Source: an uncultured bacterium
GTDB taxonomy: Bacteria > Acidobacteriota > Thermoanaerobaculia > Multivoradales > JAHZIX01
NCBI GenBank assembly: GCA_965368975.1
Contig: CBDUPA010000022.1
Coordinates: 1 to 64,000 of the forward strand
Direction: 5' to 3'
Length of the DNA stretch: 64,000 nt
Shown: one piece after another, positions 14,062 to 29,509 of the stretch
Position numbering within the stretch: position 1 is the stretch's first letter
How the letters are laid out: each line of letters begins with the position of its first letter
Translations under genes and position numbers: made by a program
Notes under the pieces: generated by a model
The model's input: the letters and a program-made list of their open reading frames with translations, nothing else
What the model was told of the DNA's origin: nothing
Databases searched by the model: none

Positions 14062-14308
14062 CTTTCGTGTGCTGCGTCTTCCCGGCACGGTGCTCGCAAA
14101 TGCCACCTGTGTGCGGAGTCTTGGCGTGGTTGTGCCCAGACGCCGAATCCAAGCCAAAGTGGGCTTCAGTTCAAGAATTTGGATCTCTCCAAGGCGTGGA
14201 CCAAGAAATTGAATCGTAATGAGCTTTAGAAGCATACCATGTGCGCGTGGCGTTGGGGTAAGGTCTGTGCGGAGGTGTTCGATGACGTTGGGCTGTAGGA
14301 AGCGACCG

Positions 14309-15841
14309 ATGCGCGTACTGCTGTGCGGTGCTTTGCTGGTGTATGCCAGCGTGACCGCCAGCGCGGCGCAGGAGCCGCCGGCGGCGGATGTCTTCGAACC
14401 GATCCGGCAGCTGTTGTCGACAGCGGACCGGCAGACGCGCCGAGCGGCTGCCGAAGAGTTGCAGCGTGCCGGCGACCTGGCGTTGGTGCCACCGCTTGTC
14501 GACGCACTCTTCTTCTTGCCGCGTGACCGGCGGCGCGAAGCTCTGGAGGTCCTGGAGGCGCTGAGCGGGGAACGGCCGGGTGGCCGCTACATGGATTGGG
14601 TGGAAGTCGTCGGCCGGCGTCGCGACCTCGAACCGCCGCCCGGCTACGCCGCCTTCAAGCTGGAGTTGCTGCAGCGCATCGACCCGAGCTACGCCAAGAT
14701 CTTCTACCCTGGTGCACCGTTGCGTATCCGGCTGGAAGAGGTGGTGTGGGGGGGCGTGCCACTGGACGGTATCCCGACGCTGGAGCAGCCGGCCCACATT
14801 CCGGCTGCCGAGGCGGACTATCTGCGCGACGACGAGGCGGTGTTCGGTGTGGCGATCGGTGGCGAAGCGCGCGCGTATCCGCTGCGCATGCTCGACTGGC
14901 ACGAGCTGCTCAACGACGTGGTCGGTGGGGAGCCGGTGAGCTTGAGCTACTGCACGCTGTGCGGCTCGGCTGTCCTGTACTCGACGCGCACGCGCGGTGC
15001 GCCCTACACGTTCGGCACCTCGGGCCTGCTGTATCGCAGTAACAAGTTGATGTTCGATCGTCAGACCTACAGTCTGTGGAGCAACCTCACCGGCGAACCG
15101 GTCATCGGCCGGCGGGCGCGCGGCAGCGTGCGGCTGCGGCAGCTGCCGGTGACGCGCACCACCTGGGAAGCGTGGCACCAGCGCTTCCCGGACACCACGG
15201 TGTTGGCGCTCGATCGTGAGCTGGAGCGCCGGACGGGTTTTCGCTACCGTCCCGGCGCGGCTCGCCTGGCGCGTCGCGGCGTCGAGTTCCCGGTCTGGCA
15301 GCGCGACGATCGTCTGGCGCGTGAGGACGAGGTTTACACGCTGCGCCTGACACAGCTAGACGCTGCGGTCGACGGGGAGGAGTCGGTGAAGGCCTACGAG
15401 CTGGATGCTTTGCTCGAGGTGGGTGTGTTGCACGACGAGCTGGGCGGCCAGCCGCTGGTGTTGGTGGCGGACGAAGGCAGCGGTGCCGTGCGGGCCTATG
15501 CACGTGCTTCCACGGCGCAGACTTTCACGGCGCGCGCTTCGGGCTTGGAGCCGGGCTTGGAGCTGCTCGATGGCGCGGGGGCGATCTGGAGAGCGGACGA
15601 GGACGCGCTGCGCTGTGTCGAGGGATGTGCCGCGTCGACGGATGCACCGCCCGAGGACATGCTGCCCGAGGACATGCTGCCCGAGGACGCACCGTCCGTA
15701 CAACCGCGTGAACTGTCGCACGAGTTGCCGCGATTGGCTGGGCATGTCGCCTTCTGGTTCGGCTGGTACGGCTTCTATCCGCACACCGAGTTGTGGCCGG
15801 ACGCCGAGCGTCCAGACGAGGAGCATAGGATTCGCCGATGA
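14309..15841 (+). CDS. DUF3179-domain secreted protein
   Basis: Signal peptide MRVLLCGALLVYASVTASAA; WGGVPLDGIPTL, ARAYPLRMLDWHELLND, SYCTLCGSA, FGTSGLLYRSNKLMFDRQT, AFWFGWYGFYPHT. Confidence 0.8.
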   Translation: MRVLLCGALLVYASVTASAAQEPPAADVFEPIRQLLSTADRQTRRAAAEELQRAGDLALVPPLVDALFFLPRDRRREALEVLEALSGERPGGRYMDWVEVVGRRRDLEPPPGYAAFKLELLQRIDPSYAKIFYPGAPLRIRLEEVVWGGVPLDGIPTLEQPAHIPAAEADYLRDDEAVFGVAIGGEARAYPLRMLDWHELLNDVVGGEPVSLSYCTLCGSAVLYSTRTRGAPYTFGTSGLLYRSNKLMFDRQTYSLWSNLTGEPVIGRRARGSVRLRQLPVTRTTWEAWHQRFPDTTVLALDRELERRTGFRYRPGAARLARRGVEFPVWQRDDRLAREDEVYTLRLTQLDAAVDGEESVKAYELDALLEVGVLHDELGGQPLVLVADEGSGAVRAYARASTAQTFTARASGLEPGLELLDGAGAIWRADEDALRCVEGCAASTDAPPEDMLPEDMLPEDAPSVQPRELSHELPRLAGHVAFWFGWYGFYPHTELWPDAERPDEEHRIRR

Positions 15842-17130
15842 CTCGTCTGGATCGACCTTCACGCAGGCGCTTCTATGCTCTCCTTGCCCTGGCGTTGGCG
15901 GCACTTGGGTTGAGCTGGGGACTCGCGCGCTGGCCGTCCGGCAGCGAGGTGGCACCGGAGGAAGCGGGGGGTCCCCAGGGCTATTGGCTGTTCGACGGCT
16001 CCTCCGCACCGTCCCCGGATGCTTCGTCAGACGAGCTCGCGCGCTTGCTGTCCTTGCCCTACTCGGGCACCGGCGAGGCCGCGAGTGGTGATAGCGGTGT
16101 GGTCTTCCACGATGCGTCTCGTACCTGGGGGAAATACAACCTCTACAGCGCCGGGCACGGGCCGGAGGCTTTCCTGGTCGACATGGACGGCAATGTCGTG
16201 CACCGCTGGCGTTTCCCCTACGCCGCCGCCTTTCCCGAGCGCGAAGTCGACTCCTGGACCAGCTACTGGCGGCGCGTGCGCTTGTTGCCGGACGGTGGTT
16301 TGGTGGCGCTGTTCCAGAGCGGTGGTCTGATCCGAATCGACCAGCGCTCGCGCTTGCAATGGCGTCTCGACCGTGGCGTCTACAACGACGTGCGCGTCGC
16401 CGCGGATGGCTCGATCGTCACGATCACCAAGGACGCGCGGCAGCTGCCGTGGATCGACCCGCTACAGCCGGTGCTCGAAGATCAGGTCCTGGTGTTGAGC
16501 GCGGGTGGTGTGCCGCTGCGCGAGGTGTCCCTCTTGCGGGTGCTGCTCGACCATGACCCTGGCCTAGTGCGCTTCACCGGCGAGCCGGACCTGCTGCACG
16601 CCAACACCGTCGAGGTTCTAGACGTTGCTGGACCACCGCGCCGCATCCTGTTCTCGGCGCGCAACATCGATACCATCGGCGTCCTCGACCTGGAGACCCA
16701 GCGCGTCGAGTGGGCGCGGCGGGGTCCCTGGCGACGCCAGCATGATCCGCGGCCGCTAGGCTCGGGTGCGGCGAGCGAATGGGGCGATTCGGTCAACGGT
16801 CGTGTGCTGCTGTTCGACAACCAGGGTGGCTCCGACGGCCGCTCGCGGGTCATCGAATTCGATCCGGCGAGCAGTGAGATCGTCTGGACCTTCGAGCACG
16901 AGAGCTTCGACTCCTTCGAGGGCGGCGCCTGCGCGCGCTTGCCCAACGGCAATACGCTGATCAGTTCGTCGATCGAAGGCCGCGCCTTCGAAGTGACGGC
17001 GAGCGGTGAGGTGGTGTGGGAGTTCGTCAACCCGCACCGCGGCGGTCAGCGCGGCGAGTTGCTGGCGGCGCTGTGGGAGGTCGAGCGACTGGCAGCCGAG
17101 GATGTCGAGGGCTGGTTGCTACGCCAGTGA
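15838..17130 (+). CDS. Arylsulfotransferase (ASST)-family beta-propeller protein
   Basis: N-terminal membrane anchor; LVDMDGNVVHRW, DLLHANTV, QHDPR, LLFDN, RLPNGNTLI, GEVVWEF; ATGA overlap with the upstream gene. Confidence 0.75.
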   Translation: MTRLDRPSRRRFYALLALALAALGLSWGLARWPSGSEVAPEEAGGPQGYWLFDGSSAPSPDASSDELARLLSLPYSGTGEAASGDSGVVFHDASRTWGKYNLYSAGHGPEAFLVDMDGNVVHRWRFPYAAAFPEREVDSWTSYWRRVRLLPDGGLVALFQSGGLIRIDQRSRLQWRLDRGVYNDVRVAADGSIVTITKDARQLPWIDPLQPVLEDQVLVLSAGGVPLREVSLLRVLLDHDPGLVRFTGEPDLLHANTVEVLDVAGPPRRILFSARNIDTIGVLDLETQRVEWARRGPWRRQHDPRPLGSGAASEWGDSVNGRVLLFDNQGGSDGRSRVIEFDPASSEIVWTFEHESFDSFEGGACARLPNGNTLISSSIEGRAFEVTASGEVVWEFVNPHRGGQRGELLAALWEVERLAAEDVEGWLLRQ

Positions 17131-18330: not shown

Positions 18331-18869
18331 GATCGGGTCGACTCCTCGGCAGGGGGCAAAGTCTGCGCCCTCACTTTGGCGGTTTGAGCGTTGCGGAAGG
18401 TGTGCAGCTTGGCGCGTAGCTCGGGGTCTTGACGCGCCAGGATCGATACCGCCAGCAGCGCTGCATTCTTGGCGCCGGCATCGCCGATCGCCAGCGTCGC
18501 GACGGGCACGCCGGCCGGCATCTGGACGATCGACAGCAGGGAGTCGACGCCGTGGAGTGCGCGGCTCTTGACCGGCACGCCGAGCACCGGCAACAAGGTC
18601 TGGGCGGCCACCATGCCGGGCAGGTGCGCGGCGCCGCCAGCGCCGGCGATCACCACCTGGACGCCGCGCTCTTCGGCGGTTTCGGCGAACTCGGTCAACC
18701 ACTGCGGCGTCCGGTGCGCCGACACCACCAGGCATTCGTGGCCGACACCGAAGTCGTCGAGCAGCTCGTGGGCACCGCGCATGGTGTCCCAATCCGAGGT
18801 GCTGCCCATGATCACGCTGACGCTCGGTCGTGACTGCAGGGACTCTTGCGGAAGGGGCCCTTGCTTCAT
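18327..18869 (-). CDS. purE: N5-CAIR mutase
   Basis: [40 protein letters not shown]. Confidence 0.97.
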
Positions 18870-19348
18870 TCGATCTTCCTTTCCAGGTCCGGTTCCATCA
18901 CGGTGAATGTCTTGTCGACATCCGCGGCCTCACCCAGCGGCTGTCCGTCCAGTTCGATCCAGGCGTGTGCATCCAGACGCGTGGTTTGTGGCACTCTGGG
19001 CTCAGTTCCGCGCAGGTTCACCCCCAGGCGCAGCCGTGCCTCGAATCCGCGCCGTCGCAGCAGCCACCACAAGGTCATCGCGCGTGGCAGGCAGACGTAG
19101 GTTCCGGGGAGATGGGTCGCGGCCCGCTGCACCGCCAGGACTGCACCCTCGGCTACCTGACCGACGGCCTCTCGTGGTGCATCGGGGTACGGCGCGCTGA
19201 GCGCTTCCGGGACCGTCCGGCGCAGCCAGGACCAGCAGCGCCGGAAGCCGAACCATACCAGACCCCAGCGCACGAGGGGCAGTATCAGAACCGCCGCGAC
19301 CAGGGGCCGCCGCTCGTCCGGCGGCAGGCGCAGCAGCTTGCCGATCAC
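18866..19348 (-). CDS. Lasso peptide biosynthesis B2-type (transglutaminase-like) leader peptidase
   Basis: [16 protein letters not shown]...LRLGV...[10 protein letters not shown], carrying the catalytic Cys and His of this family. Confidence 0.85.
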
Positions 19349-19364: not shown

Positions 19365-19631
19365 TCATGGGGTCTCCAGCTCGATCAACTGATCGGCGGC
19401 GAGTTGGTCGAGCAAGGATCGCAGGTCGCGGCGCAGGCGCTCCGGTGCCACCTCGAATTCGTCCAGCAGCGCGGCCTGGACGGCTTCGACATCCCGCAAC
19501 TCGTCGAGCAACTGCCAGATGCGCGTGCCCACTTCGTCGAGGCCGAAGTACTTCTGGCTGCGCAGGTCGAGCAGCACAGACTCGCCGTCGAGCTCGCGGA
19601 ACAGAACTTGTTGAGAGGGGGTAGCGCGCAT
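19365..19631 (-). CDS. PqqD-family RiPP recognition element (lasso B1-type)
   Basis: About 88 aa; VLFRELDGESVLLDLRSQKYFGLDEVGTRIWQLL...EFEVAPERLRRDLRSLLDQL. Start position uncertain. Confidence 0.88.
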   Translation of the reverse strand: MRATPSQQVLFRELDGESVLLDLRSQKYFGLDEVGTRIWQLLDELRDVEAVQAALLDEFEVAPERLRRDLRSLLDQLAADQLIELETP

Positions 19632-19683
19632 CTGGATCTCCGGCGCCAGTTTAGCAGCCGGCGATGGACGATAATATGACGCC

Positions 19684-20268
19684 ATGTTCCAGATCAAAAG
19701 CCCGTCCCTCCTCCTGCTCGCCGTGACCGTGTTCGTGGGCAGCGTCGCCGTCTTGCAGTTCGGCTGCGCCACCGTGCGGGGTCCCGAACGTCTCGACGGC
19801 TATCGTCAAGCTCTCGACGCCAGCGTCGCCTCGGCTTCCGGTCACCTGGACGCCGAGGCCGCGCGCCAGCGCTTCGCTGCCTTCTATGCCGAGTTCACCC
19901 CCGAGGCCGTGCGCCGCAACGTGCCCGAGGTGTTCGCGCCGGATGCCTACCTCAACGACTACCTGCACGAAGCGCATGGCCGTGAGGCTGTCGCCGCCTA
20001 CCTGAGCCAGGTCGCGGAGGACTTCGTCGACGCGTCCTTCGTCGTCGAGGGAGTGGCGCACAACGACATCGACTACTACTTCCGCTGGACCATGTCGTTC
20101 CGCCTGCGTGGCAACGAGGACGACCCACCCCTGACCTCTCCCGGCGTCTCGCACGTGCGTTTCGACGCCGAGGGCCGCATTCTCTTCGAGGCGGATCATT
20201 GGGACCTCAATGCCGTTTACGAGCGCATCCCGGGGGTGGCGGCAGTCGTGCGCAAGCTACGTCAGTGA
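19684..20268 (+). CDS. SnoaL/NTF2-like exported protein, possibly a lipoprotein
   Basis: Hydrophobic N-terminus ending FGC; FAPDAYLND...HGREAVAAYL, GVSHVRFDAEGRI...DHWD. Confidence 0.75.
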   Translation: MFQIKSPSLLLLAVTVFVGSVAVLQFGCATVRGPERLDGYRQALDASVASASGHLDAEAARQRFAAFYAEFTPEAVRRNVPEVFAPDAYLNDYLHEAHGREAVAAYLSQVAEDFVDASFVVEGVAHNDIDYYFRWTMSFRLRGNEDDPPLTSPGVSHVRFDAEGRILFEADHWDLNAVYERIPGVAAVVRKLRQ

Positions 20269-20338
20269 CCGGTGCCTGGCAGTGATCGGTGCCTTCGCTA
20301 CGTTACGTGTCCGTATCGAAGCTTTCTCACCTTTACGC

Positions 20339-20367
20339 TTGACAGCAGGCGTCATCGTGGTGAAACT
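20339..20367 (+). promoter_or_regulatory. Putative sigma70 promoter of the RiPP-like operon
   Basis: TTGACA-N17-GAAACT, about 80 nt upstream of the precursor ATG. Confidence 0.45.
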
Positions 20368-20447
20368 GAATGGCAAACTCTGATCACCCAACCTGTGTCG
20401 AGTTCCACGGCTCGCCGTGTCTCGATCGCCGTCCTGGAGAGATCGCC

Positions 20448-20768
20448 ATGAGCTGGAACCAAGCCCCCTCCGTACAGCCTGAGACCCCGAACCCGGTCAT
20501 CCCCTCCTACCGCGCCGCCTACGATGGTGCCAAGACAGCCAAGCCGGAAGTGATCACCGAGGTGGCTCCGGAAGTGAAGCCGGAGATCATCACCGAGGTT
20601 GCACCCGAGGTGAAGGGCGAGATCATCACCGAGGTGGCACCGGAAGTGTCCAAGGAGATCAAGCGCAGGCCCGAAGTGATCGTCGAAGTGGCGCCCGAGC
20701 TGTCCCACGAGAAGGTCAAGAAGATCGCCAAGGAAGTGATCGTCGAGGTAGCGCCGGAGACCAAGTAA
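20448..20768 (+). CDS. Putative multi-core RiPP precursor peptide (106 aa) with five E[VI]I[TV]EVAPE repeats
   Basis: GGAGAG RBS; ~30-aa non-repetitive leader, then PEVITEVAPEV, KPEIITEVAPEV, KGEIITEVAPEV, RPEVIVEVAPEL, KEVIVEVAPETK. Repeats vary at synonymous positions. Only 4 nt separate it from the next gene. Confidence 0.75.
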   Translation: MSWNQAPSVQPETPNPVIPSYRAAYDGAKTAKPEVITEVAPEVKPEIITEVAPEVKGEIITEVAPEVSKEIKRRPEVIVEVAPELSHEKVKKIAKEVIVEVAPETK

Positions 20769-20772
20769 CTCC

Positions 20773-23700
20773 ATGGCGGGGGACCGAGAGCGGCTGCTGC
20801 GGCTCTTGCTCCGCCAGGGCATTCTCCATGCATCGCCGACGCAGCCGGTGCGTTCCCGCGACGGAACGCCGGCGCGTTGGATGCTCGATTCTCTCGGCGT
20901 CACGTTGGAGGGAGAGGGGCTGCAGCTGGCCGCGCGGTGCCTGCTGCCCCTGCTCGCTCGTTTCGAAGGCCGGCAGATCGCCACCTTTGGCACCACCGCC
21001 ATCCCGCTGGTCGCCGCCTGTGTCGCGGCCTCGGAGGGCCGCTACCACGGGTTGCTGGTGCGCAAAGAGCGTAAGCCGCACGGCTCTTCCAAGCGCATCG
21101 AGGGCCGCATCGAGCGCGACGAGCCGGTCATCCTGCTCGACGACTCGGTGAGTTCCGGCACCGCCATGACCGACGGGCGGCACCACCTGGAGAAAGCCGG
21201 CCTGTGGGTCGAGGGCGGTGTCTGCCTGGTGCGCTTCGGCTGGGACCGCGGCATCGCGCGCATGATGCAAGACGGCCTGCACATGGAAGCCGTCTTCGAC
21301 ATCTACGACGACGTCATGGCCGGCATGGACGCCGAGCCCGACCCGCTGGCCAATCCCACCAAGGTGTTGCCGGCGATTTGCTGGAGCGCCGAGTCGGCTC
21401 CTGAGGGCCTGCACCCCGCGCACCTGGCGCGCCGTGTCATGGAGCACCGCTTGCGGACCGGCGAGCTGCTACGCCCTCCCGCGACCCTCGACACCAATTA
21501 TGATTCCAGCGGTGGTGCCTACGTCAGCGTACGCGACCGCGAGCAGATCTACCAGCGCTACGGCCGCGAGGGTTTTTGGCACTTTCCTGAAGAGTTATCA
21601 GCGGCTCCGCCCAAGGACGCCATCTCCCCGGTCTTTCAAGAACTCCCCCCTTCCGCGCCGCGCGACGTCGTTCTCGCCGCGCACAAGACCCTCGCCCTGC
21701 TGCCCGAAGGCGAGGAAGGCCTGGCGACGCTCGACCGCAGCCTGCTCGCCGTCACCCTCTTCTCGGCGCTCGAGAGCTGCACCGTAGGCCAGCTCGACAA
21801 CCAGCGCTACGGCATCGTCGTGCGCAGCCGCGAGCGCACCGGCGTCATGGGCGGTGCCTTGCCTCGCATGCCCGGCCTGCGCGACAGCTGGGGCCAGTTC
21901 CAGCACGCGCGCATCAAGAACGGCAAGCTGATCTCCTTCGAGCCCTACGAAGTCCTGCGTCACGACGTCACCAAGCTCGTCGAGCCGGGCGCCCACTGGC
22001 AGCCCACCGGTGTGCCCAGGTCCGCTGAGACACCCTGGTTCGAAGACGCCGACATCGCCGGCCGCGTGGCTTTGAGGGTACGGCAAGTGGCGTTGAGCGA
22101 GATGCTCGGTGAATCGACAGCCAGCTCCGTAGAGCTGCCCAGCTTGCCCGAGACCTTCGACTCAGTGTTCGTTTCCGTCTACGTGCGCGGCCGGCTGCGC
22201 GGGTGTGTCGGTAGCTCGTGTGGGGCGGACGCGGGAGCCAGCCCGGACGAGCTGGAGGCGACGCTGCAGCAGCTCGTGCCCCTGGCCCTCGAAGACGGAC
22301 GCTTCGACGACGACCTACGTCCCGGCTCGGCGCAAGAACTCGCCGTCACCGTGTCCTTGCTGCACCAGCCCTTGACCCTCGGCGTCATGTCGCCGGCAGA
22401 CGTCATGCCACGCATCCGCCTGGGCGAACAGGCGCTCAAGGTGTCGCAGGGCACACGTGAAGGTCTGCTGCTGCCCTTCGTCGCCAGCTCGCGGCACCCG
22501 CTGGCGCACGACTTCGCCGCCGAGGTCATCGACAAAGCCGGCGTCACCCGGCCGCCCTACACCTGGCACCGTTGGGAATGCGCCACCTGGCTGGCGGACG
22601 CGTTTCACGGTGCTTCCGAAGAAAGAATGCACGGAACACCCCGCCAGCTGCGCGGGACGTTTCCACCCATTCCGCCCGGCGACGACTCGCCTGCACAGCG
22701 TGTGCAGCGTCTCACCGACCTCTACGCGCGCTACCTGCTGCGTCACCAGAAGACCGATGAGGAGGACGCCGGCAGCTTCTATTTCCGCTACAAGCCGCAT
22801 CCGAACGTGCTGGTCGACGGCATCGACGTGCCGCGTCTGGCGCACACCGCCTGGACCCTCGCGCGCGCCGCCCGCCTGCTCGATCGAGACGACCTGCGCC
22901 AGGCCACGGATCGTACCGTCGTGCACCTGCTGGCCCTGTGCCGCTGTTTCGACCCCAGCGACGATGCGCATGGCGGCTGGTGGCTCGAGCGTGAGGGCGA
23001 GCAGCCGCACGCGGCCATCGCCGAAGTCGCGTTCCTGCTGCTGGCGCTGTGCGAACGCGCCGACGATGCGGGCCAGCCCCCGGCACCGGAAGAGGTCCGC
23101 ATGGCGCCGCGCCTGGCCGGAACGCTGTGGGCGTCGATCGACCGTCTCGGCTACATCAGCACCCACCGTATCGACCACGGCGGCCCGGGCAGCCTGTCCA
23201 GGGACGACCTCGAGGCGTACCAGAACTTCTATCCCGGCCAGGCGCTGCTCGCCCTCGCCCGCGCCGCCGAACTCGAGATCCACGTACCTGACCCGCGGCG
23301 CCTTGCCGCTGCCTTCCGGCGGTACCGTCATCGCTACCGGCACCAGCACCACTTCGGCCAGGCGTCGTGGCTGGCGCAGGCCTGGGCTGCCTGGGCGCGG
23401 AGCAGTGGCGAGAACCGGGACGCCTACGCCGCCTTCGTCCACCAGATCGTCGATCATGCTCTGGAGCACCAGGTGCAAGCGCCAGAGCAGAGAGACGTCG
23501 GTGCTTTCCTCACTCCCTTGCAGCAGGGCCCCGGCTTCACCAGCGTGCTTTTCTTGGAGGTACTCGCCGCCGCCATGAGCCTGAGCCTCGAGAGCGAAGT
23601 CGACGAGCGCTACCGCCGCGCTTACCACCTCGGCGTCCGCTTTCTCGATACCTTGACGCTGCAAGAGCCCATGCTGCCATTGCTGCCGGCTCCCGAGTGG

Positions 23701-23814
23701 GCGTACGGTGGCGTGCGTCAAGATCCCTACTACGACGAGATCCGCATCGACTTCGTCAGCCACTCACTGTCCGCGCTGCTGTGGTCCCATCCCGCACCCC
23801 AGGAGTCCTCATGA
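20773..23814 (+). CDS. Multidomain protein: orotate-PRTase-like + two AMMECR1-like domains + C-terminal alpha-helical (alpha/alpha toroid-like) domain
   Basis: PyrE-like LLVRKERKPHGSSKRIEG and PRPP-binding loop VILLDDSVSSGTA. AMMECR1 motifs VFVSVYVRGRLRGCVGS, ALEDGRF, GLLLP..KAG, and a divergent copy (GGAYVSV...YGIVVRS...GGALPRMPG). C-terminal GSFYFRY, FYPGQALLAL, GGVR...IRIDFVSH. Confidence 0.75.
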   Translation: MAGDRERLLRLLLRQGILHASPTQPVRSRDGTPARWMLDSLGVTLEGEGLQLAARCLLPLLARFEGRQIATFGTTAIPLVAACVAASEGRYHGLLVRKERKPHGSSKRIEGRIERDEPVILLDDSVSSGTAMTDGRHHLEKAGLWVEGGVCLVRFGWDRGIARMMQDGLHMEAVFDIYDDVMAGMDAEPDPLANPTKVLPAICWSAESAPEGLHPAHLARRVMEHRLRTGELLRPPATLDTNYDSSGGAYVSVRDREQIYQRYGREGFWHFPEELSAAPPKDAISPVFQELPPSAPRDVVLAAHKTLALLPEGEEGLATLDRSLLAVTLFSALESCTVGQLDNQRYGIVVRSRERTGVMGGALPRMPGLRDSWGQFQHARIKNGKLISFEPYEVLRHDVTKLVEPGAHWQPTGVPRSAETPWFEDADIAGRVALRVRQVALSEMLGESTASSVELPSLPETFDSVFVSVYVRGRLRGCVGSSCGADAGASPDELEATLQQLVPLALEDGRFDDDLRPGSAQELAVTVSLLHQPLTLGVMSPADVMPRIRLGEQALKVSQGTREGLLLPFVASSRHPLAHDFAAEVIDKAGVTRPPYTWHRWECATWLADAFHGASEERMHGTPRQLRGTFPPIPPGDDSPAQRVQRLTDLYARYLLRHQKTDEEDAGSFYFRYKPHPNVLVDGIDVPRLAHTAWTLARAARLLDRDDLRQATDRTVVHLLALCRCFDPSDDAHGGWWLEREGEQPHAAIAEVAFLLLALCERADDAGQPPAPEEVRMAPRLAGTLWASIDRLGYISTHRIDHGGPGSLSRDDLEAYQNFYPGQALLALARAAELEIHVPDPRRLAAAFRRYRHRYRHQHHFGQASWLAQAWAAWARSSGENRDAYAAFVHQIVDHALEHQVQAPEQRDVGAFLTPLQQGPGFTSVLFLEVLAAAMSLSLESEVDERYRRAYHLGVRFLDTLTLQEPMLPLLPAPEWAYGGVRQDPYYDEIRIDFVSHSLSALLWSHPAPQESS

Positions 23815-25736
23815 CCGCGCCCCCCATACAGCGCCACGGGCCCCTGCTCGAACTGCGCCCGCAGGACGGCGATGCGTCGCAGCCGGATGTCGACGCCAGC
23901 TTCCCCGTTGCCCTGATCAGCATGCCCACCCTGGCGCCGCACTTCCCGAGCTTCCAGCTGGGCTTGCTCCAACCCACCCTCGAACGCGCCGGCATCGCCG
24001 TCCAGCCCTTCAGTCTCTTCCTCTACTTCGGTGCCCACATCGGCTGGTCCCTCAACGACGCCCTGTCCGCCGTGCGTCCGTGTATGGCCGGCGAGTGGAT
24101 CTGGTCCAAAGCCGCCTTCGGCGAGTTCTCGGATGCCGACGAATACCTGCAGCACTACGCCCGCAACTTCGCCCAGATCTGCCAGGGCGCCGGCTGCACC
24201 CTCGACGACCTGCACCGCGTGCGCGACGAGCAGACCTTCACCTTCCTGGACGCCATGCTCGATGCCGTCGACTGGAGCCGCTTCCAGCTGATCGGTTTCA
24301 CCGTCGTCTTCCAGCAGATGGTCGCCAGCCTCGCCTTCGCCCGCCGCCTCAAAGAGCGCCACCCTGACATTCCGATCATCTTCGGCGGGGCCACCTTCGA
24401 AGACGACATCGCCGAAGGCATCTTCGACGCCAGCCCCTGGATCGACTACATCCACTGCGGCGACGCTGACGACACCTTCCCCGAGCTGGTGCGACGCCTC
24501 AAAGCAGGTGAGTCGATGGACGGCATGACCGGCATCCGCTGGCGTGACCAGGATGGAGTGCCTCAATTCGCTGGCCGTGCCCCCAACCTGCACAATCTCG
24601 ACCAGACCCCGGTGCCGTCCTACGACGAGTACTTCTTCGCCCGCCGTCAGAGCGGCTATGACGCCTACACCCAGGCCAAGGGCTCCATGATCCCCATCGA
24701 AACCGCACGCGGCTGCTGGTGGGGCATGAAGCAGCACTGCACTTTCTGCGGCCTCAACCGCTCTGGCATGCACTTCCGCGCCAAGAGCGTCGACGGCGTG
24801 CTCGACATGCTGGCCGACCTGAGCCGCAAGTACGGCATCCTGCACTTCGACGCCATCGACAACATCATGGCCCCGGAGTACCTAGAGCAGCTCTTCGGCC
24901 AGCTCGCGGACGCTCACACCGACGTCCAGATCCACTACGAAGTGCGGCCCTACCTCAGCCGCGATCAACTGCGCGAACTCAAGCGCGGCGGCCTCTATTC
25001 AGTGCAGCCTGGCATCGAGAGCCTGAACACCCACGTGCTGAAACTGATGCGCAAGCACAGCACCGGCGTCAACAACCTCAGTTTCATGAAGTGGTGCACC
25101 TACTTCGGCATCAACAATCTCTACAACCTGCTGATGGGTTTTCCGGGCGAGACGGTCGAAGACTACGAGCAGCAGCTGGAAGTCATCGCCAAGATCCCCC
25201 ACTTCCAAGCCCCCTACGGCGTCGCCCGTGCCCGTGCCGATCGCGGCTCTCCCATGTACACCGAGCCCGACCAGCACGGCATCCTCAACCTACACCCCAG
25301 CTGGTGCTACCAGCACATCTACCCCCCGGATCGCTACGACCTGGCGAAGGTCTCGTATTACTTCGATCACGAGCTGGACGGTGAGCTGCCCAAGGAGGTC
25401 TATGAGCAGACCTTCAACGCCGTCTACGAGTGGCAAGCCCGCTGGCACTCGCGTCCGCGGCCATCGCTAACGTACTCCAAGAGCTGGAAGACCCTGGTGC
25501 TTTCCGATCAACGCGGATTGCCGGGCCTTCCCACCCGCGTCACCCTACAGAACCGCGCCGCGGACCTCTACGAGTTCTGCCATGAGCCCAAGGGGCTGGC
25601 GTCGGTGGTGCGGCACTTCGAGGGCGATGAAGCCTGGGTCCAGGCGATGCTTGCGGAGCTGTGCGGCATGGACTTGATGATCCACCTGGACGGGCGGTAT
25701 CTGAGCTTGGCGCTGCCGGAGAATCCTTATTACTGA
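23811..25736 (+). CDS. RiPP maturation B12-dependent (class B) radical SAM enzyme, probable C-methyltransferase (PoyC/TIGR03975-like)
   Basis: Start at 23811 (ATGA overlap, AGGAG RBS); VALISMP...PSFQLGLL; B12-binding LIGFTVVFQQ...IIFGGA; ETARGCWWGMKQHCTFCGLN (Cx7Cx2C); DNI; VQPGIES; YNLLMGFPGE. Confidence 0.9.
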   Translation: MTAPPIQRHGPLLELRPQDGDASQPDVDASFPVALISMPTLAPHFPSFQLGLLQPTLERAGIAVQPFSLFLYFGAHIGWSLNDALSAVRPCMAGEWIWSKAAFGEFSDADEYLQHYARNFAQICQGAGCTLDDLHRVRDEQTFTFLDAMLDAVDWSRFQLIGFTVVFQQMVASLAFARRLKERHPDIPIIFGGATFEDDIAEGIFDASPWIDYIHCGDADDTFPELVRRLKAGESMDGMTGIRWRDQDGVPQFAGRAPNLHNLDQTPVPSYDEYFFARRQSGYDAYTQAKGSMIPIETARGCWWGMKQHCTFCGLNRSGMHFRAKSVDGVLDMLADLSRKYGILHFDAIDNIMAPEYLEQLFGQLADAHTDVQIHYEVRPYLSRDQLRELKRGGLYSVQPGIESLNTHVLKLMRKHSTGVNNLSFMKWCTYFGINNLYNLLMGFPGETVEDYEQQLEVIAKIPHFQAPYGVARARADRGSPMYTEPDQHGILNLHPSWCYQHIYPPDRYDLAKVSYYFDHELDGELPKEVYEQTFNAVYEWQARWHSRPRPSLTYSKSWKTLVLSDQRGLPGLPTRVTLQNRAADLYEFCHEPKGLASVVRHFEGDEAWVQAMLAELCGMDLMIHLDGRYLSLALPENPYY

Positions 25737-25789
25737 GTTCGCTCCGGAGGTGTGAAGTGAATATTACTCACCAAGGGTATACCACGCAG

Positions 25790-26566
25790 TCACCTGCCTC
25801 GATTCGTGCCAGCCGGGCAACTCCGTTCCGCCAGATACCGTTCGACGAACTCGAAGTACTCCGGCGACGTGCAGGCGGCGACTTTGCGGCAGGTGGTGTC
25901 GAACTCGAGATGCTGGCTGGCGGCGAAGTCACGGAGCGTGTCGAGTGCCATCAGCATTCCGGGTAGATCTTGGGCTTTGACCGCGGCGGCCGTCAGCGCT
26001 CGTCGCAACGCGACTTCGGGTAACTCTTCGCCAGTGCGCGTGAGCCCGAAGGCATAGGCGGAGATGCGCTGAGCCAGGTGAGGGCGCTGGAGTAGGAAGC
26101 GTTCGGCGGCGTCCTGCGACTCGCGATCGGTGACCAGGTAGTGGTCCAGGAACTCGGCGAAGAGCGAATCGGGCTTCGTCGAGTCGTGAGGCTGCGATCT
26201 GTTCAGCTGACGCAGCATGCCCTGCAGTTTCGCGTCCCGAGCTTGCGGCAGGGTGCTGGGAATCGACGAGCGGTTGCGGAAGTAGGCGAAGCCGATGCCG
26301 CACGCGACGAAGCTGAGAAGGAGGGGCGCGAACCACAGGTCGTTGAGGTCTCGGTTTGTGCCCCAGACGGCGAGTGCGAACAGGAGGGGGAAGGCGAGCA
26401 GACCAGCCAGGGCGATGTTGTTGGCGCGCTGCAAGTCGCGCAGTTGTTCGGGTTGGAGGTGCTGGTTCATCAGCTCCGTGGAGGTTCGCAGGTTGTAACC
26501 GCCCAGGAGGACGAGTGCCGCGTAGACAACATAAGCTCCTATTCCGTACAGCCAGCCTTCCATCAT
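25790..26566 (-). CDS. Hypothetical membrane protein
   Basis: Three hydrophobic segments in the N-terminal half, then a soluble domain; abuts the upstream gene's stop codon. Confidence 0.6.
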   Translation of the reverse strand: MMEGWLYGIGAYVVYAALVLLGGYNLRTSTELMNQHLQPEQLRDLQRANNIALAGLLAFPLLFALAVWGTNRDLNDLWFAPLLLSFVACGIGFAYFRNRSSIPSTLPQARDAKLQGMLRQLNRSQPHDSTKPDSLFAEFLDHYLVTDRESQDAAERFLLQRPHLAQRISAYAFGLTRTGEELPEVALRRALTAAAVKAQDLPGMLMALDTLRDFAASQHLEFDTTCRKVAACTSPEYFEFVERYLAERSCPAGTNRGR

Positions 26567-29434
26567 CTAGTCTCCTGTTCGTAGCACGCGGGCCAGACCG
26601 CATCGCTCGTAGGCCCCGAAACCGAACGCCAGTCCCTGGAACATCTGGTCGGCACCCTTCCACCAACCGGACGCGTTGCCCAGGTAGTCGGCCCACCAGC
26701 CGGCCAGGCTGGGATTATCGAAGGCGGCGCGGCCGAGGGTGCACAGGTCGATGGCTGGAGTGGCAGTGGGGTCCAGCTCGTGGGCTTGCAGCAGCCAGGC
26801 GATCGTGTGGGGACGGTTGGGGCCGAGGATGCTGAGACCATCGCCGTTGTCGAACCAGGTACAGCTGTTCACCTGCGTTCCACCCCCGGTCAGACTACAG
26901 CTCATGAGCGCCGCCCAGTCGGCATTGACGTCGATGGCGCCGCCGGGACCTTGCATCATGCCCTGCTGGTAATAGACCAACGGCGCTTCGATCAGCGACC
27001 GTTGTAGGCCGCCGAAATCCCCGTAGTTGCGCAGCATGCGGTGGAAGAAGAGGAAGTGCATGGCGTTCTGCATGAACTGCTGGGGCTGGTCGCAGGTGTT
27101 GGCGTTGGGAATGTCGCCCTGGCAGAGTAGTCCGGCACGCAGGTTGTCTTGCCCTAGCTCAGCGAGAATCTCTTGCAGACGATCGTGGCAGGCTTGGCCC
27201 GCCGCGCCGGGGACGAACTCGGCACAGTTGGCCAGCATCTCGAAGTGCTGGATCACCTGACGCGTGATGTCGACCTGATCGACGAACGCCTCGCGCAAGC
27301 CTTGCTGAGCTTGCGGCAGGCTGTAGCGATTGGTCATGGTGATGCCAGCTTGACGGAACCGGTCGCGCAGCGCGGGACTGGGGCGCAGCAGGTAGGCGAG
27401 TTGCAGGCCTTGGTTGTAGCTGTAGTCGTCCGAGCCGAAGGCGCTGCGGTGCCACTGACCCTCGCCGCTGCCACCGGAGGTCACCGCGACGCCGGCGCGG
27501 TTGCCGTGACTCTGGTTGCCGATGTTGAGATAGGCGGTGTGCGTTTGCAGCCAGCTCTGCGGCAAGGCGAAATCCCAGGCCCAGCGTGGGTGGCCGCTGC
27601 GCAGGAACTCGAGCAACTCGGTGCCGCTGGGATTCCAGTAGTTCATCGCGCCGCTGTTGCTCGCCGGGTCGGGATTGTCGATCAGCCACAGGTCGCGCTG
27701 CACGTCGGGCCACAGCTGCGAGCCGAAGGTCTTGGCACGGTGCCACTGTCCGTTCGGGGCGGCGCCGACGGTCTGCCCGTGCAGCTCGCCGAGCAGCTGG
27801 AGGTAGGTGGTCTCGGTGGCGGACGGCGTGCCGGTACCGGCGCCCAACGTGGGCAGGACGCTGGCGCGGTCGAAGCGACTGCGGTAGGTGCGCACCAGCA
27901 GACCGCGTTCGAGTTCGTCGACAGCCTCGGTGCGCAGCGCCTCGACGTCCGCAATCGCGTTCGCGAAAGGGCCTCCGGAGGGGCCGGGTAGCAGGCTCAG
28001 GCGGGCTTGATTCCACAGGCCCTTGCCTTCGCCGACGACCAGGCTCTCGCTGATCACGCGCAGCGACAGCGTCGAGCCCTGGGCCACGATCGCTTGTGGC
28101 TCTCGGTAGCGCATCCAGGCGAGGTTGAGCGCGGCGAGTAGGTGGTTGCCGCCCAGGGGGCCAGCAGTCTGACCCTGGATCGCCAGCACCGGGCGATCGA
28201 AAGCCTGCGCGGTCTGCTGGTCGACGCTGTTCAGGCGGATGCGCGCGCGACGCTGCCACGGCGAGCCGGTGCCCTTGCGCTGCTCGACGTCCACGGTGCC
28301 GGCACCGAAAGTCGTGACCGCACCGGCGCCGCCGGCATGGGCGCTGACCTGGGTCCAGCCGAGGGGCAACTCCCAGGACGCTCGGTGCACGGTGACGGCG
28401 TCGTCGGTCCAGGGACCGGAGTTGGCGTCGCTACACTCGTTGCGCAGGTGGAATTCCAGCAGCACGTGACGGCTGGCGCGCTGGAAGGTGGCGACGAGGG
28501 TGTAGCCGAAGCGTTCGTAGTCGGTGGGGCCGCTGGTGCACAGGCTGGCGCCGGTACCGGAGGAGAAGTGCCCGTCGAGTGCCACGGTCACCTTGGCCGG
28601 GCCGTTCTCCAGGATGCGGAAGCTGCCGGCATCGACGGTCACCTGCCCGGGCGTCGCGGTGCTCAGGGTCAGCGGAGTTCCACCGTTGTCGAAACTCAGG
28701 TACGGACCGGCGCCGGCGACATGACTGTAGACCGGAATGCGCGTGGCGCTGTCGATGTCGTTGGGGTTGACGCCGATGGCGTGGAACAGGGCGGGATTGG
28801 CGGCATCCAGTTCGAAGGTCGCCAGGCCGGTGTCGGCCATAAAGCGGCTCGTTGCCGGAACCGGCGTGATGCTGGCGGCGAAAGGCGTCGCGCTCGAAGC
28901 GGGTGTTTCCATGCGCCGCAGGGCGACTCGCACGAACGCCGGATTGTTCGCACTACCGGCACCGACGTGTGCGGGGAAGACCACCTGTAGCCAACGGATT
29001 GGCAAGCTGGTGTCGTCCACCGGACCGCCCCAGCGCGCAAGAACGTCGAATTGCGCCTCGAGGCGGCGTTGACCGCTGCCGGCGACGATCAAGGCGTCCG
29101 TCGAGGTCAGCCCCAGGTCGCGGGCGATCGGGATCGCCGACCAGGCGAGTTCACGACCGCGCGCTCGCGGCCTGTCGTTGAACACTTCCAGGCAGGCCAG
29201 CTCCTGGAACGAGCCGGCCGGCACCGCGCCCGGACTGCCGTCCAGGGCGCTGGTGATCACGGGGCCTTCGAGGCAACTGGCGCCGAGGCCGAAGACGCGC
29301 TGGAAGTCGCCGGTCTCACCGGTCTCGAAGCCGGTGATGTTGAGGGCTTGGCTTTGGCCGGCACACGGTGGCGGAGTCCAGCAGAGCGCCAGCGAAGCCG
29401 CCAGCGCAACGAGGTGGGCAATTCTGCACTTCAT
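26567..29434 (-). CDS. Large secreted protein, possibly PcRGLX/YetA-like polysaccharide lyase or hydrolase
   Basis: Signal peptide MKCRIAHLVALAASLALCW; AQFDVLARWGG...IRWLQV; ILENGPAKVTV; helical C-terminal part. Family assignment is tentative. Confidence 0.55.
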   Translation of the reverse strand: MKCRIAHLVALAASLALCWTPPPCAGQSQALNITGFETGETGDFQRVFGLGASCLEGPVITSALDGSPGAVPAGSFQELACLEVFNDRPRARGRELAWSAIPIARDLGLTSTDALIVAGSGQRRLEAQFDVLARWGGPVDDTSLPIRWLQVVFPAHVGAGSANNPAFVRVALRRMETPASSATPFAASITPVPATSRFMADTGLATFELDAANPALFHAIGVNPNDIDSATRIPVYSHVAGAGPYLSFDNGGTPLTLSTATPGQVTVDAGSFRILENGPAKVTVALDGHFSSGTGASLCTSGPTDYERFGYTLVATFQRASRHVLLEFHLRNECSDANSGPWTDDAVTVHRASWELPLGWTQVSAHAGGAGAVTTFGAGTVDVEQRKGTGSPWQRRARIRLNSVDQQTAQAFDRPVLAIQGQTAGPLGGNHLLAALNLAWMRYREPQAIVAQGSTLSLRVISESLVVGEGKGLWNQARLSLLPGPSGGPFANAIADVEALRTEAVDELERGLLVRTYRSRFDRASVLPTLGAGTGTPSATETTYLQLLGELHGQTVGAAPNGQWHRAKTFGSQLWPDVQRDLWLIDNPDPASNSGAMNYWNPSGTELLEFLRSGHPRWAWDFALPQSWLQTHTAYLNIGNQSHGNRAGVAVTSGGSGEGQWHRSAFGSDDYSYNQGLQLAYLLRPSPALRDRFRQAGITMTNRYSLPQAQQGLREAFVDQVDITRQVIQHFEMLANCAEFVPGAAGQACHDRLQEILAELGQDNLRAGLLCQGDIPNANTCDQPQQFMQNAMHFLFFHRMLRNYGDFGGLQRSLIEAPLVYYQQGMMQGPGGAIDVNADWAALMSCSLTGGGTQVNSCTWFDNGDGLSILGPNRPHTIAWLLQAHELDPTATPAIDLCTLGRAAFDNPSLAGWWADYLGNASGWWKGADQMFQGLAFGFGAYERCGLARVLRTGD

Positions 29435-29509
29435 GGGTTCTCCCTGGGAACGAAGGCAAACTGTAGGAGCTTCTGTACTGCAGTTCGCGCTTACGCGCAC
29501 GGGTTCGAC

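Follow-up and report, generated by a model that had tools for sequence, protein, structure and literature searches.

The polytheonamide enzymes PoyB and PoyC are C-methyltransferases of the TIGR03975 type, which act in proteusin-type pathways. In other RiPP pathways, such as those of cyanobactins and orbitides, the precursors are multi-core, i.e. many short core copies are present in one gene product. The AMMECR1 domain is conserved from archaea to humans; since, to our knowledge, it has no known activity, its presence in a protein gives no mechanistic anchor. PoyB has been listed as an iterative methyltransferase and PoyC as a Csp3 methyltransferase (PMC12931638). RGChG and DxRa are the signature motifs of AMMECR1 (Balaji and Aravind 2007; PMC2034487). 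The domain is recurrently partnered with radical SAM enzymes, and the 2007 analysis went no further than predicting a Cys-based catalytic role linked to these enzymes (PMC2034487).

We analyzed a three-gene cassette (Table 1) in a 64,000-nucleotide stretch of DNA (the window), which codes for a repeat peptide (the putative precursor), a 1013-aa fusion protein and a cobalamin (B12) radical SAM enzyme. As in proteusin-type pathways, a radical SAM gene of the same subfamily adjoins a ribosomal peptide gene, and extra B12-radical SAM paralogues occur in two related loci (L040 and L042). In contrast to these pathways, the precursor lacks an NHLP/Nif11-type leader and consists of short repeats (up to ~40 in relatives), the cassette core showed no epimerase, and what constantly accompanies the precursor is a PRTase-AMMECR1-barrel fusion. 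The gene product carries many short core copies, as multi-core precursors do, but neither conserved flanking recognition/cleavage sequences nor cognate protease genes were found in 80 loci.

The coupling of an AMMECR1 domain (with RGChG and DxRa) to a radical SAM gene is reminiscent of AmmeMemoRadiSam (AMMECR1, Memo and radical SAM; TIGR04335). However, the fusion scores 60.3 against the TIGR04335 cut-off of 99, no Memo-like gene turned up in a tally of the conserved neighbors of the 80 loci, and the AMMECR1 module is present in two copies, joined to two further domains in one protein. Moreover, the cassette enzyme is a B12 class B methylase, whereas the radical SAM enzyme of the earlier analysis is MiaB-related (PMC2034487). 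The fusion also resembles orotate phosphoribosyltransferase (PyrE), by a fold-level sequence match to solved OPRTases and by the retained flexible and PRPP loops, but here this domain is the N-terminal part of a 1013-aa protein, lies in a peptide-gene context and scores below the equivalog cut-offs. The barrel gives a whole-domain structural match to AGE-superfamily sugar 2-epimerases/isomerases and six-hairpin enzymes (4z4j), although at 9-16% identity; this likeness is one of fold.

Organization of the cassette

The three genes are tightly coupled, as described in the initial annotation. The precursor gene starts with an ATG at 20448, preceded by GGAGAG, and ends with TAA (20766-20768); a 4-nt gap (CTCC) separates it from the fusion ATG at 20773. 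The fusion TGA (23812-23814) overlaps the radical SAM ATG (23811-23813) as ATGA, and AGGAG is placed 5 nt upstream of the latter start codon. Scanning of positions 19600-26000 revealed no sigma-70 promoter-like sites and one terminator-like site (on the minus strand, inside the fusion gene), which is within the expectation from shuffling.

Table 1. Coordinates of the cassette genes, their domains and the genes just upstream (positions in the window)
Feature	Position	Strand	Remarks
Lasso-type B2 protease	18866-19348	-	just upstream of the cassette
Lasso-type PqqD (B1)	19365-19772	-	just upstream of the cassette
Precursor gene	20448..20768	+	106 aa; ORF and RBS
Tandem repeat	20541..20661	+	three 36-nt units encoding KPE(I/V)ITEVAPEV
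Fusion gene	20773..23814	+	1013 aa; four domains
OPRTase-like type I phosphoribosyltransferase domain	20773..21327	+	residues 1-185; TIGR00336 1.8e-13 (below cut-off); PDB matches 2p1z, 2wns, 5hkf
Degenerate AMMECR1	21328..22038	+	residues 186-422; G-F-W-H-F-P replaces R-G-C-h-G-F-P; without Cys
Canonical AMMECR1	22039..22647	+	residues 423-625; RGCVG and D-G-R-F motifs
(alpha/alpha)6 barrel (six-hairpin) domain	22648..23814	+	residues 626-1013 and stop; AlphaFold model, VIA, Foldseek
Radical SAM gene	23811..25736	+	641 aa; TIGR03975 cobalamin radical SAM; ATGA overlap and RBS

The repeat peptide

The first 32 aa of the precursor are non-repetitive; after them come five x-E-V-A-P-E copies, arranged in 12-aa units rich in K, P, E, I and V (Tandem Repeats Finder: period 36, 3.0 copies, 78-81% matches). 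It is present in a single copy within its own genome and matches no Pfam or NCBIfam family at E<=0.01, including those of the NHLP and Nif11-type leaders by which proteusins are recognized. The motif P/T/V-E-[I/V]-x-P, found five times in this protein, reaches up to ~40 copies in relatives, the longest repeat ORFs having a stop-to-stop frame of up to 437 aa (L006). Three or more occurrences were counted for EVA and for VAP in 47 of the 65 precursors each, for PEV in 44 and for PEI in 42, and the motif logo comprises 1106 instances. The motif is kept at the protein level in loci labelled Myxococcota, Alphaproteobacteria, Thiothrix, Egibacteraceae and Omnitrophota.

No conserved leader, RRE, protease or exporter/transporter was recognizable alongside the cassette in the 80 loci. 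For this reason, and because some of the repeat ORFs are long, the product, instead of being a small RiPP of the classical kind, may be a modified polypeptide.

Domains of the fusion protein

The fusion was originally annotated as a PRTase-AMMECR1 protein. Both of these domains are present, but the protein has four domains, not two: an additional degenerate AMMECR1 and a C-terminal (alpha/alpha)6 barrel were also recognized.

The N-terminus gives PDB profile matches to 2wns (4.5e-13) and 2p1z (1.9e-12). Its RKERKxHG flexible loop and DDSVSSG PRPP loop, which align with the same loops of 2p1z, 2wns and 5hkf, are invariant or nearly so among 16 family members (R97, K98, E99, K101, G104, D123, D124, S125, S128 and G129 are invariant in the 16 sequences), and these residues presumably have the catalytic roles ascribed to them in OPRTases. 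Retention of the loops at ~50% overall family identity is the pattern predicted for an active enzyme and not for a relic. The scores (TIGR00336, 50.6 vs a cut-off of 106.8; NF001729, 22.9 vs 245; Pfam PF00156, E=0.078) indicate an OPRTase-like domain that is not a PyrE. As it scores under every curated OPRTase cut-off, the acceptor need not be a peptide.

The canonical AMMECR1 copy is well defined (PF01871, 1.2e-15, 57.8 bits vs a gathering cut-off of 25), with RGCVG at residues 476-480 and with G477, C478, G480, D508, R510 and F511 invariant across the family alignment. Its fold matches 1zq7 (Foldseek 1.1e-13; VIA Z 14.7, rmsd 4.8, 192 residues aligned). The degenerate copy matches Pfam AMMECR1 with E=0.0044 in the window protein, and 8 of 30 members do so at E<=0.1; in the divergent members P0222, P0244 and P0312 the same region clears the Pfam cut-off. 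Moreover, its profile places GFWHFP under RGCIGFP of PH0010 (E=0.093). The structure of this copy was modeled with high pLDDT; in VIA/Foldseek comparisons of a 440-residue model, the match lists were filled by the canonical half, and the degenerate half alone gave only rows with Z<=4.1 and hence no fold match of its own. The two halves of residues 186-625 did not match each other significantly in hhalign (E 0.042, probability 1.2%), and the duplication therefore rests on the Pfam and PDB profile matches. A protein atlas search with residues 186-425 returned no usable match, and the shorter proteins containing this region were only fragments of the same family (43-59% identity), no stand-alone form being seen among them.

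The barrel was modeled by AlphaFold with high confidence (pLDDT 92.7, pTM 0.93). The best VIA match is cellobiose 2-epimerase 4z4j (Z 29.4, rmsd 3.0, 332 of 388 residues aligned), followed by mannose isomerase 5x32 (Z 27.4), the single-domain squalene-hopene-cyclase-like 8paj (Z 26.6) and GH76 (Z about 25.6); the top Foldseek E value is 6.6e-7. All of these are matches at the fold level (8-16% identity). The modeled barrel thus appears closest to sugar 2-epimerases/isomerases, but scores nearly as high are obtained with class II terpene cyclases and GH76, and we therefore assign the fold alone. LanC-like cyclases do not occur among the 50 barrel matches listed, an absence that excludes nothing. 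The domain contains many invariant polar residues. Proteins of 600-800 aa from relatives, homologous to the barrel, have weak GH127 or SQHop-cyclase Pfam matches and an uninformative context, and one 1370-aa family member carries an extra APH-type kinase domain.

The radical SAM enzyme

The third protein had been annotated as a class B radical SAM enzyme with a Cx7Cx2C motif, which we verified: the cluster motif C-x7-C-x2-C reads GCWWGMKQHCTFC in the translation, and the protein matches PF02310 (B12-binding, 34.0 bits, cut-off 32.1) and PF04055 (49 bits). It scores 544.8 bits against TIGR03975 (cut-off 281.85), with residues 33-635 aligned to model positions 1-606 of 606. This family is named "RiPP maturation radical SAM C-methyltransferase" by NCBI. 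Judged by this match, the enzyme is a member of the TIGR03975 subfamily and would transfer methyl groups to carbon atoms of a peptide; the label "PoyC-type" is to be read as membership of this family alone.

Linkage in homologous loci

Clustering at 90% leaves at least 645 members of the fusion family, almost all of them 930-1050 aa long; at 50% identity, about 144 cluster representatives (some of them fragments) match a mid-plus-AMMECR1 profile at E<=1e-30. The carriers are more than 100 genomes, mostly of soil bacteria. Relatives of the fusion are encoded in 154 stretches of species-representative genomes, of which we examined 80 loci (67 with Acidobacteriota-type labels).

The adjacency of the three genes, a check suggested with the initial annotation, is conserved across phyla. 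In 71 of the 80 loci the fusion gene has the radical SAM gene as its direct neighbor in the same orientation (in 73 the latter is present anywhere in the locus); of the nine loci that deviate, six involve a contig end. A P-E-[I/V]-x-P repeat ORF was detected at a distance of up to 1 kb in 63 loci, or 64 if L054, recognized by inspection, is included. In each of the other 16 the contig terminates at less than 600 nt, and none of the 80 loci with both flanks present lacks the repeat ORF. Two loci (L065 and L074) are devoid of the radical SAM gene despite sufficient flanking sequence, yet retain the precursor and the fusion, which indicates that this pair is the core of the cassette. The radical SAM gene is a near-constant, but not obligatory, addition.

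The precursors of L065 and L074 contain no E[VI][A/S/V/G][P/A] motifs. A correlation of the radical SAM gene with this small-residue form is, however, only a hint, because L048, which has the gene, contains just one such motif.

The gene order is variable: precursor-radical SAM-fusion in most loci, precursor-fusion-radical SAM in the window and in L006, L012, L024, L062, L073 and L080, and radical SAM-fusion-precursor in the Angelobacter and Bryobacterales types. Preservation of the linkage in three different orders speaks for a coupling by function and against mere inheritance of synteny. A full-length fusion homologue was detected in only one of 60 relatives of the same order, and such patchy spread is typical of biosynthetic clusters.

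Neighboring genes of the peptide-tailoring type are found in subsets of the 80 loci: those for a 2OG-Fe(II) oxygenase (20+3 loci), an rSAM-SPASM protein (17), a carbamoyltransferase (11) and an MGDG-synthase-like glycosyltransferase (6), as well as the extra B12-radical SAM paralogues of L040 and L042.

Homologues of the lasso-type PqqD and B2 genes located upstream in the window were found in none of the 80 related loci. For this reason we set the pair aside as a source of the RRE and leader peptidase for the cassette. Nor does the window encode a lasso peptide system (B1, B2 and an Asn-synthetase-like cyclase): the genome contains 10 PF00733 matches, none of them on the contig concerned (C22).

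Discussion

We consider it probable that the cassette encodes an undescribed but conserved RiPP-like pathway, which modifies a ribosomal peptide post-translationally. The initial proposal of a candidate new RiPP system has thus gained support, both from the linkage described above and from full-text searches of the literature, which brought up no characterized pathway with these parts and no report linking the fusion to RiPPs.

[quoted passage not shown] The former may C-methylate an unactivated carbon in the motif, by analogy with characterized TIGR03975 members most likely the beta-carbon of the conserved Val/Ile. At its OPRTase-like site the fusion might transfer ribose-5-phosphate from PRPP to the motif, where the carboxylate of Glu seems the most plausible acceptor; the two AMMECR1 modules, arranged in tandem, could bind the peptide or nucleotide and supply the conserved Cys478, and the epimerase-like (alpha/alpha)6 barrel might then process the sugar. 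In its fullest form this would be a new RiPP class, in which the Glu of P-E-[I/V]-x-P is phosphoribosylated, the sugar is processed and the adjacent Val/Ile is C-methylated by the B12 radical SAM enzyme, some lineages also hydroxylating, glycosylating and carbamoylating the product, and AMMECR1 serving as a peptide-modifying module. We put forward this specific proposal tentatively, as one with a minority chance of being correct.

Alternatively, the PRTase-like domain might be a nucleotide/PRPP-sensing regulator (as are PyrR-type proteins) or a substrate-recognition module, and the AMMECR1 Cys site and/or the barrel would act on the peptide, for example by isomerizing, cyclizing or hydrolyzing it, in addition to the radical SAM methylation. 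The scores of this domain, below all OPRTase equivalog cut-offs and marginal for PF00156, fit such a role, as do the fully conserved AMMECR1 motifs and the recurrent association of AMMECR1 with radical SAM enzymes (PMC2034487). Against this speaks the (near-)invariance of the RKExKxHG and acidic PRPP loops in an otherwise divergent family, and we regard a sensor or recognition function as unlikely. Small molecules are the usual substrates of OPRTase and sugar-epimerase-like domains, and many class B radical SAM enzymes methylate such compounds; in addition, no leader or protease is conserved. These facts would suit the synthesis of a nucleoside- or sugar-phosphate-like compound from PRPP, methylated by the B12 enzyme, with the repeat protein in the part of a co-conserved accessory, for instance a scaffold, carrier, chaperone or immunity protein. 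Such a pathway is nevertheless quite improbable, given that the radical SAM protein scores far above the cut-off of a family named for RiPP maturation, that the repeat ORF is the most constant neighbor, with a motif conserved across phyla, and that the rSAM-SPASM and 2OG oxygenase neighbors are typical peptide tailoring enzymes.

Long spurious frames are numerous in GC-rich DNA and the examined loci are predominantly of the Acidobacteriota type, so that the repeat ORF might be a chance frame, or the linkage plain synteny of close relatives. This is already contradicted by the data and has a negligible likelihood: of the 840 frames between stop codons (40-500 aa) that the window contains, only the precursor passes a screen for such repeats, it is preceded by an RBS, its motif is kept across phyla, and the linkage persists under differing gene order.

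Conclusions

The cassette is a real, widespread and undescribed RiPP-like system. It is found mainly in uncultured members of the Acidobacteriota, whose secondary metabolism has received little study. Provided that the peptide is the substrate, the fusion proteins, of which there are at least 645 when clustered at 90%, would represent a widespread RiPP-like family, whose defining fusion enzyme is without known precedent in peptide natural products. PRPP and sugar chemistry would thereby enter RiPP biosynthesis, and new cobalamin radical SAM methylases would become available, with short, repeated and hence easily assayed substrates. Should the proposal of a new RiPP class prove true, the product would be a sugar-decorated, methylated, proline-rich polypeptide, and AMMECR1 would for the first time be given a biochemical role, that of modifying peptides with a radical SAM enzyme as its partner. 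The cassette offers a tractable bacterial system for studying the function of AMMECR1, a question that has stood since the family was defined.

Anatomy of the cassette

The tight coupling of the precursor, fusion and radical SAM (rSAM) genes proposed in the initial annotation is borne out by the 4-nt gap, the TGA/ATG overlap and the RBS-like AGGAG before the rSAM gene. The 106-aa precursor consists of a 32-aa non-repeat N-terminus and five x-E-V-A-P-E copies, three of which are encoded by 36-nt tandem units, and it matched no Pfam or NCBIfam family. Among the 840 stop-to-stop frames (40-500 aa) of the window, the repeat criterion singled out the precursor alone. The source genome (7.13 Mb in 59 contigs, 99.3% complete) carries one fusion gene and one precursor gene.

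A gene for a SnoaL_2 lipoprotein-like protein lies upstream of the cassette, and two other-strand genes without annotation lie downstream. The 258-aa and 977-aa proteins encoded convergently with the cassette gave no Pfam or NCBIfam match, and none of the 80 related loci described below encodes a homologue of either. Elsewhere in the window, the DUF3179 and PF14269 genes look like a coupled pair.

Coordinates of the features discussed (nucleotides of the window, unless residues or another locus are named)
Feature	Position	Strand	Details
Open frame	1-8583	+	2860 aa or more; continues beyond the window's 5' edge
DUF3179 and PF14269 genes	14219-17130	+	540 aa with HEAT repeats, and 430 aa, arylsulfotransferase-like; 4-nt overlap
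B2 transglutaminase-like protease	18866-19348	-	lasso-type pair with the next feature
PqqD-family chaperone	19365-19772	-	
Precursor	20448-20768	+	ATG 20448; TAA 20766-20768; GGAGAG before the start codon
Tandem units of the precursor	20541-20661	+	
Fusion	20773-23814	+	ATG 20773, 4 bases after the precursor stop; TGA 23812-23814; 1013 aa
OPRTase-like domain	fusion residues 1-185		TIGR00336 and solved-OPRTase matches
Degenerate AMMECR1 domain	fusion residues 186-422		Pfam E=0.0044 in the window protein
Canonical AMMECR1 domain	fusion residues 423-625		PF01871, 57.8 bits
(alpha/alpha)6 barrel (predicted)	fusion residues 626-1013		pLDDT 92.7, pTM 0.93, 71-row alignment
rSAM	23811-25736	+	641 aa; start overlaps the fusion TGA; AGGAG five bases upstream
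Membrane-like and signal-like-start genes	25790-29500	-	258 aa and 977 aa, respectively
APH-type phosphotransferase/kinase domain	P0222 residues 1049-1277		C-terminal addition; protein of 1370 aa
Protein with barrel-like C-terminus, L085	3431-5365		
Protein with barrel-like C-terminus, L086	2757-5105		
Repeat-protein region, L040	10911-15696		
Repeat-protein region, L042	10855-13638		
rSAM-less locus, L065	3934-7536		
rSAM-less locus, L074	7002-14087		

Conservation and gene order

The fusion family comprises at least 645 proteins at E≤0.001 (word-indexed search, 8000 candidates scored); among the 120 matches listed, lengths were 932-1051 aa and query coverage 96-100%. At E≤1e-30, a profile of residues 186-625 recovered 144 cluster representatives (50% identity), mostly 860-1015 aa long and matched near residues 200-600; the looser set of 5077 at E≤0.001 includes ordinary AMMECR1 proteins. 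With one genome taken per species, 154 stretches encode a fusion relative, and the best 80 of these were analysed. Their labels are of Acidobacteriota type in 67 cases, the other 13 being Myxococcota, Alphaproteobacteria, Thiothrix, Egibacteraceae, Omnitrophota and one 'Clostridia' bin. Among 60 relatives of the same family and order, a single genome has a full-length fusion homologue (57% identity), and the others match single domains only.

A search for repeat peptides and rSAM genes beside the fusion homologues, the check suggested earlier, found both. In 71 of the 80 loci the fusion gene has a TIGR03975-type rSAM gene as a same-strand neighbour no more than 400 nt away. In six of the nine exceptions (L010, L037, L055, L066, L072, L078) the contig breaks off no more than 300 nt upstream of the fusion gene, and in L035 the rSAM gene is placed after the precursor; no rSAM gene was present in the examined DNA of L065 and L074, whose flanks are long enough to show one. 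Repeat ORFs encoded on the same strand at a distance of up to 1 kb occur in 63 loci, and L054, scored as 'far' solely owing to its split rSAM match, is the 64th. In every one of the remaining 16 a contig end lies within 600 nt of the cassette, and none of the 80 loci has both flanks and lacks a repeat ORF. Three gene orders were found, and the linkage is therefore more than inherited synteny. Since L065 and L074 keep only the precursor and the fusion, these two make up the system's core.

The precursor family

In composition, the 65 precursors favour P (18%) and E (13%), with V, A, I, R and K also frequent and few C or aromatic residues. In a motif-free count, the triplets recurring at least three times in a precursor include EVA (in 47 of the 65 precursors), VAP (47), PEV (44), PEI (42) and APE (39). 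Over 1106 occurrences of the search pattern E-[V/I/M]-x-[P/A], which itself dictates three positions, the unconstrained ones favour P (70%; V 14%, T 10%) at -1, A (49%; R 23%, K 11%) at +2 and E (64%; D 8%) at +4. The minimum shared by the repeats is E-[I/V], mostly as P-E-[I/V]-x-P. The repeats begin no more than about 10-30 residues from the N-terminus in many precursors, and no leader common to the precursors is evident.

Angelobacter-type loci have R-P-I-V-E-V-[S/V/A]-[P/A] repeats, encoded after the fusion gene; in L040 and L042 these are spaced by linkers of about 25 aa, and the repeat protein is followed by one or two extra B12-rSAM paralogues. The repeats of the two rSAM-less loci are purely E-[I/V]-[K/R]-P: Thiothrix L074 has K-P-E-[I/V] and I-V-E-I-K-P-E, with a gene for an RND-type pump next on the same strand, and Myxococcaceae L065 has 40 P-E-I-R units. 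Many Pyrinomonadaceae-type precursors (L003, L007, L011, L017, L019, L020, L023, L025, L026, L028, L029, L031, L032, L056, L071, L076) close with a basic stretch and Tyr (…KKY, …KKGY, …ETKY), an ending which could be a conserved C-terminal tag.

The fusion protein

The initial annotation described a PRTase-AMMECR1 fusion; both domain types were found, together with two further domains, giving four in all. Residues 1-185 match TIGR00336 under its cut-off (1.8e-13), and the fusion-family profile matches the solved OPRTases 2wns (4.5e-13) and 2p1z (1.9e-12). Two loops of the domain, the flexible one (R97-K-E-R-K101-x-H-G104) and the PRPP one (D123-D-S-V-S-S-G129), align to those of 2p1z, 2wns and 5hkf, and both are invariant or almost so in 16 members sharing only about 50% identity. 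The domain is OPRTase-like, but it is not PyrE.

Residues 186-422 match AMMECR1 at E≤0.1 in 8 of 30 members, and the region exceeds the Pfam cut-off of 25 bits in three divergent ones (P0222, 42.9; P0244, 37.3; P0312, 26.1). When its profile is aligned to PH0010 (E 0.093), G-F-W-H-F-P occupies the position of R-G-C-I-G-F-P, and so this first copy is without the Cys. The canonical copy matches 1zq7 in structure (Foldseek 1.1e-13; VIA Z 14.7, rmsd 4.8, 192 aligned). Its RGCVG (476-480) and D508-G-R-F511, all invariant, are the RGChG and DxRa signatures, proposed as the AMMECR1 active site by Balaji and Aravind (PMC2034487).

Structures were modelled from alignments that joined the window protein to 70 of the 72 loci in which the gene is full length. 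The C-terminal domain is assigned at fold level only. The best whole-domain match of the predicted structure is cellobiose 2-epimerase 4z4j (Z 29.4, rmsd 3.0, 332 aligned), followed by mannose isomerase (Z 27.4) and glucose 2-epimerase (Z 26.7); single-domain cyclases score little lower (8paj, Z 26.6), as does GH76 (about Z 25.6). Cassette-less relatives (G001-G005, G007, G018, G027 and others, and loci L085 and L086) encode proteins of 600-800 aa whose C-terminal 350 or so residues are 26-30% identical to the barrel; their Pfam matches, to GH127 or SQHop-cyclase, are weak.

The radical SAM enzyme

The assignment to the B12-dependent class B enzymes with a C-x7-C-x2-C cluster motif proved correct: the protein carries the motif, PF02310 and PF04055, and it scores 544.8 bits against a cut-off of 281.85 on TIGR03975, across the whole model length. 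Its nearest solved structure by sequence, OxsB (E 0.0028), is not close. PoyC is a precedent for C-methylation in this subfamily. TIGR03975 is named 'RiPP maturation radical SAM C-methyltransferase' by NCBI, and PoyC is listed in the review PMC12931638.

Accessory genes

Neighbouring ORFs of at least 90 aa from the 80 loci were clustered all against all, and each cluster was identified in Pfam from one representative. A 2OG-Fe(II) oxygenase of PF13640 type lies immediately upstream of the precursor in 20 loci, and one of PF13661 type occurs in three more. An rSAM-SPASM protein is encoded in 17 loci of several phyla, at varied positions, a carbamoyltransferase in 11 and an MGDG-synthase-like glycosyltransferase in six. 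The SDR found in 16 loci may reflect synteny, because LpxD and further housekeeping genes accompany it. None of these genes, nor an extra B12-rSAM or APH-type kinase, is present in the window, and no conserved protease or exporter accompanies the cassette in the 80 loci.

Proposed function and novelty

What is observed is the anatomy of the cassette, its domain identities, the intact catalytic signatures, and a linkage between precursor, fusion and, almost always, rSAM that spans phyla. That the finding is an artefact or plain synteny is extremely improbable, given that only one of 840 frames passed the repeat criterion and that the linkage persists despite three gene orders. We consider it fairly probable that the cassette modifies a peptide, with the repeat as substrate. 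It is quite improbable that the enzymes make a small molecule to which the peptide is accessory: OPRTases and epimerases do usually act on such molecules, but the rSAM subfamily is RiPP-specific and the repeat gene is constant.

If the cassette does modify a peptide, the repeat peptide would be shared by the rSAM and the fusion. The former would C-methylate an sp3 carbon within the motif, for which Val/Ile C-beta is, by analogy, the likeliest site. The fusion might move ribose-5-phosphate from PRPP onto the motif, where the conserved Glu carboxylate would be the obvious nucleophile; the AMMECR1 pair could serve as a platform for peptide or nucleotide, with the sugar as the target of the epimerase-like barrel. 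We regard this phosphoribosylation as possible, if doubtful. A regulatory role for the PRTase domain, or one as a mere binding module, would agree with its scores under the cut-offs but is unlikely in view of the conserved catalytic loops. The oxygenase, glycosyltransferase, carbamoyltransferase or kinase found in subsets would fit a sugar-decorated, proline-rich product.

The system resembles known ones in parts. The rSAM is of the TIGR03975 type, as in proteusins, whereas the precursor type differs. The partnership of AMMECR1 and rSAM echoes AmmeMemoRadiSam, but with 60.3 against 99 bits the AMMECR1 part of the fusion is not a member of AmmeMemoRadiSam protein A. The adjacent PqqD/B2 pair, directly upstream of purE/purK and on the strand opposite to the cassette, is lasso-like, but none of the ten PF00733 (Asn-synthetase-like cyclase) matches of the genome lies on the contig. 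Homologues of the pair are absent from the 80 related loci, and it may be an orphan or serve another pathway.

A match to a characterised pathway was also sought, and full-text searches of openly accessible articles returned no description of the cassette. On the genomic evidence we rate it as a putative RiPP-like pathway built around an enzyme without precedent; its product would either be cut into small peptides or kept as a modified polypeptide.
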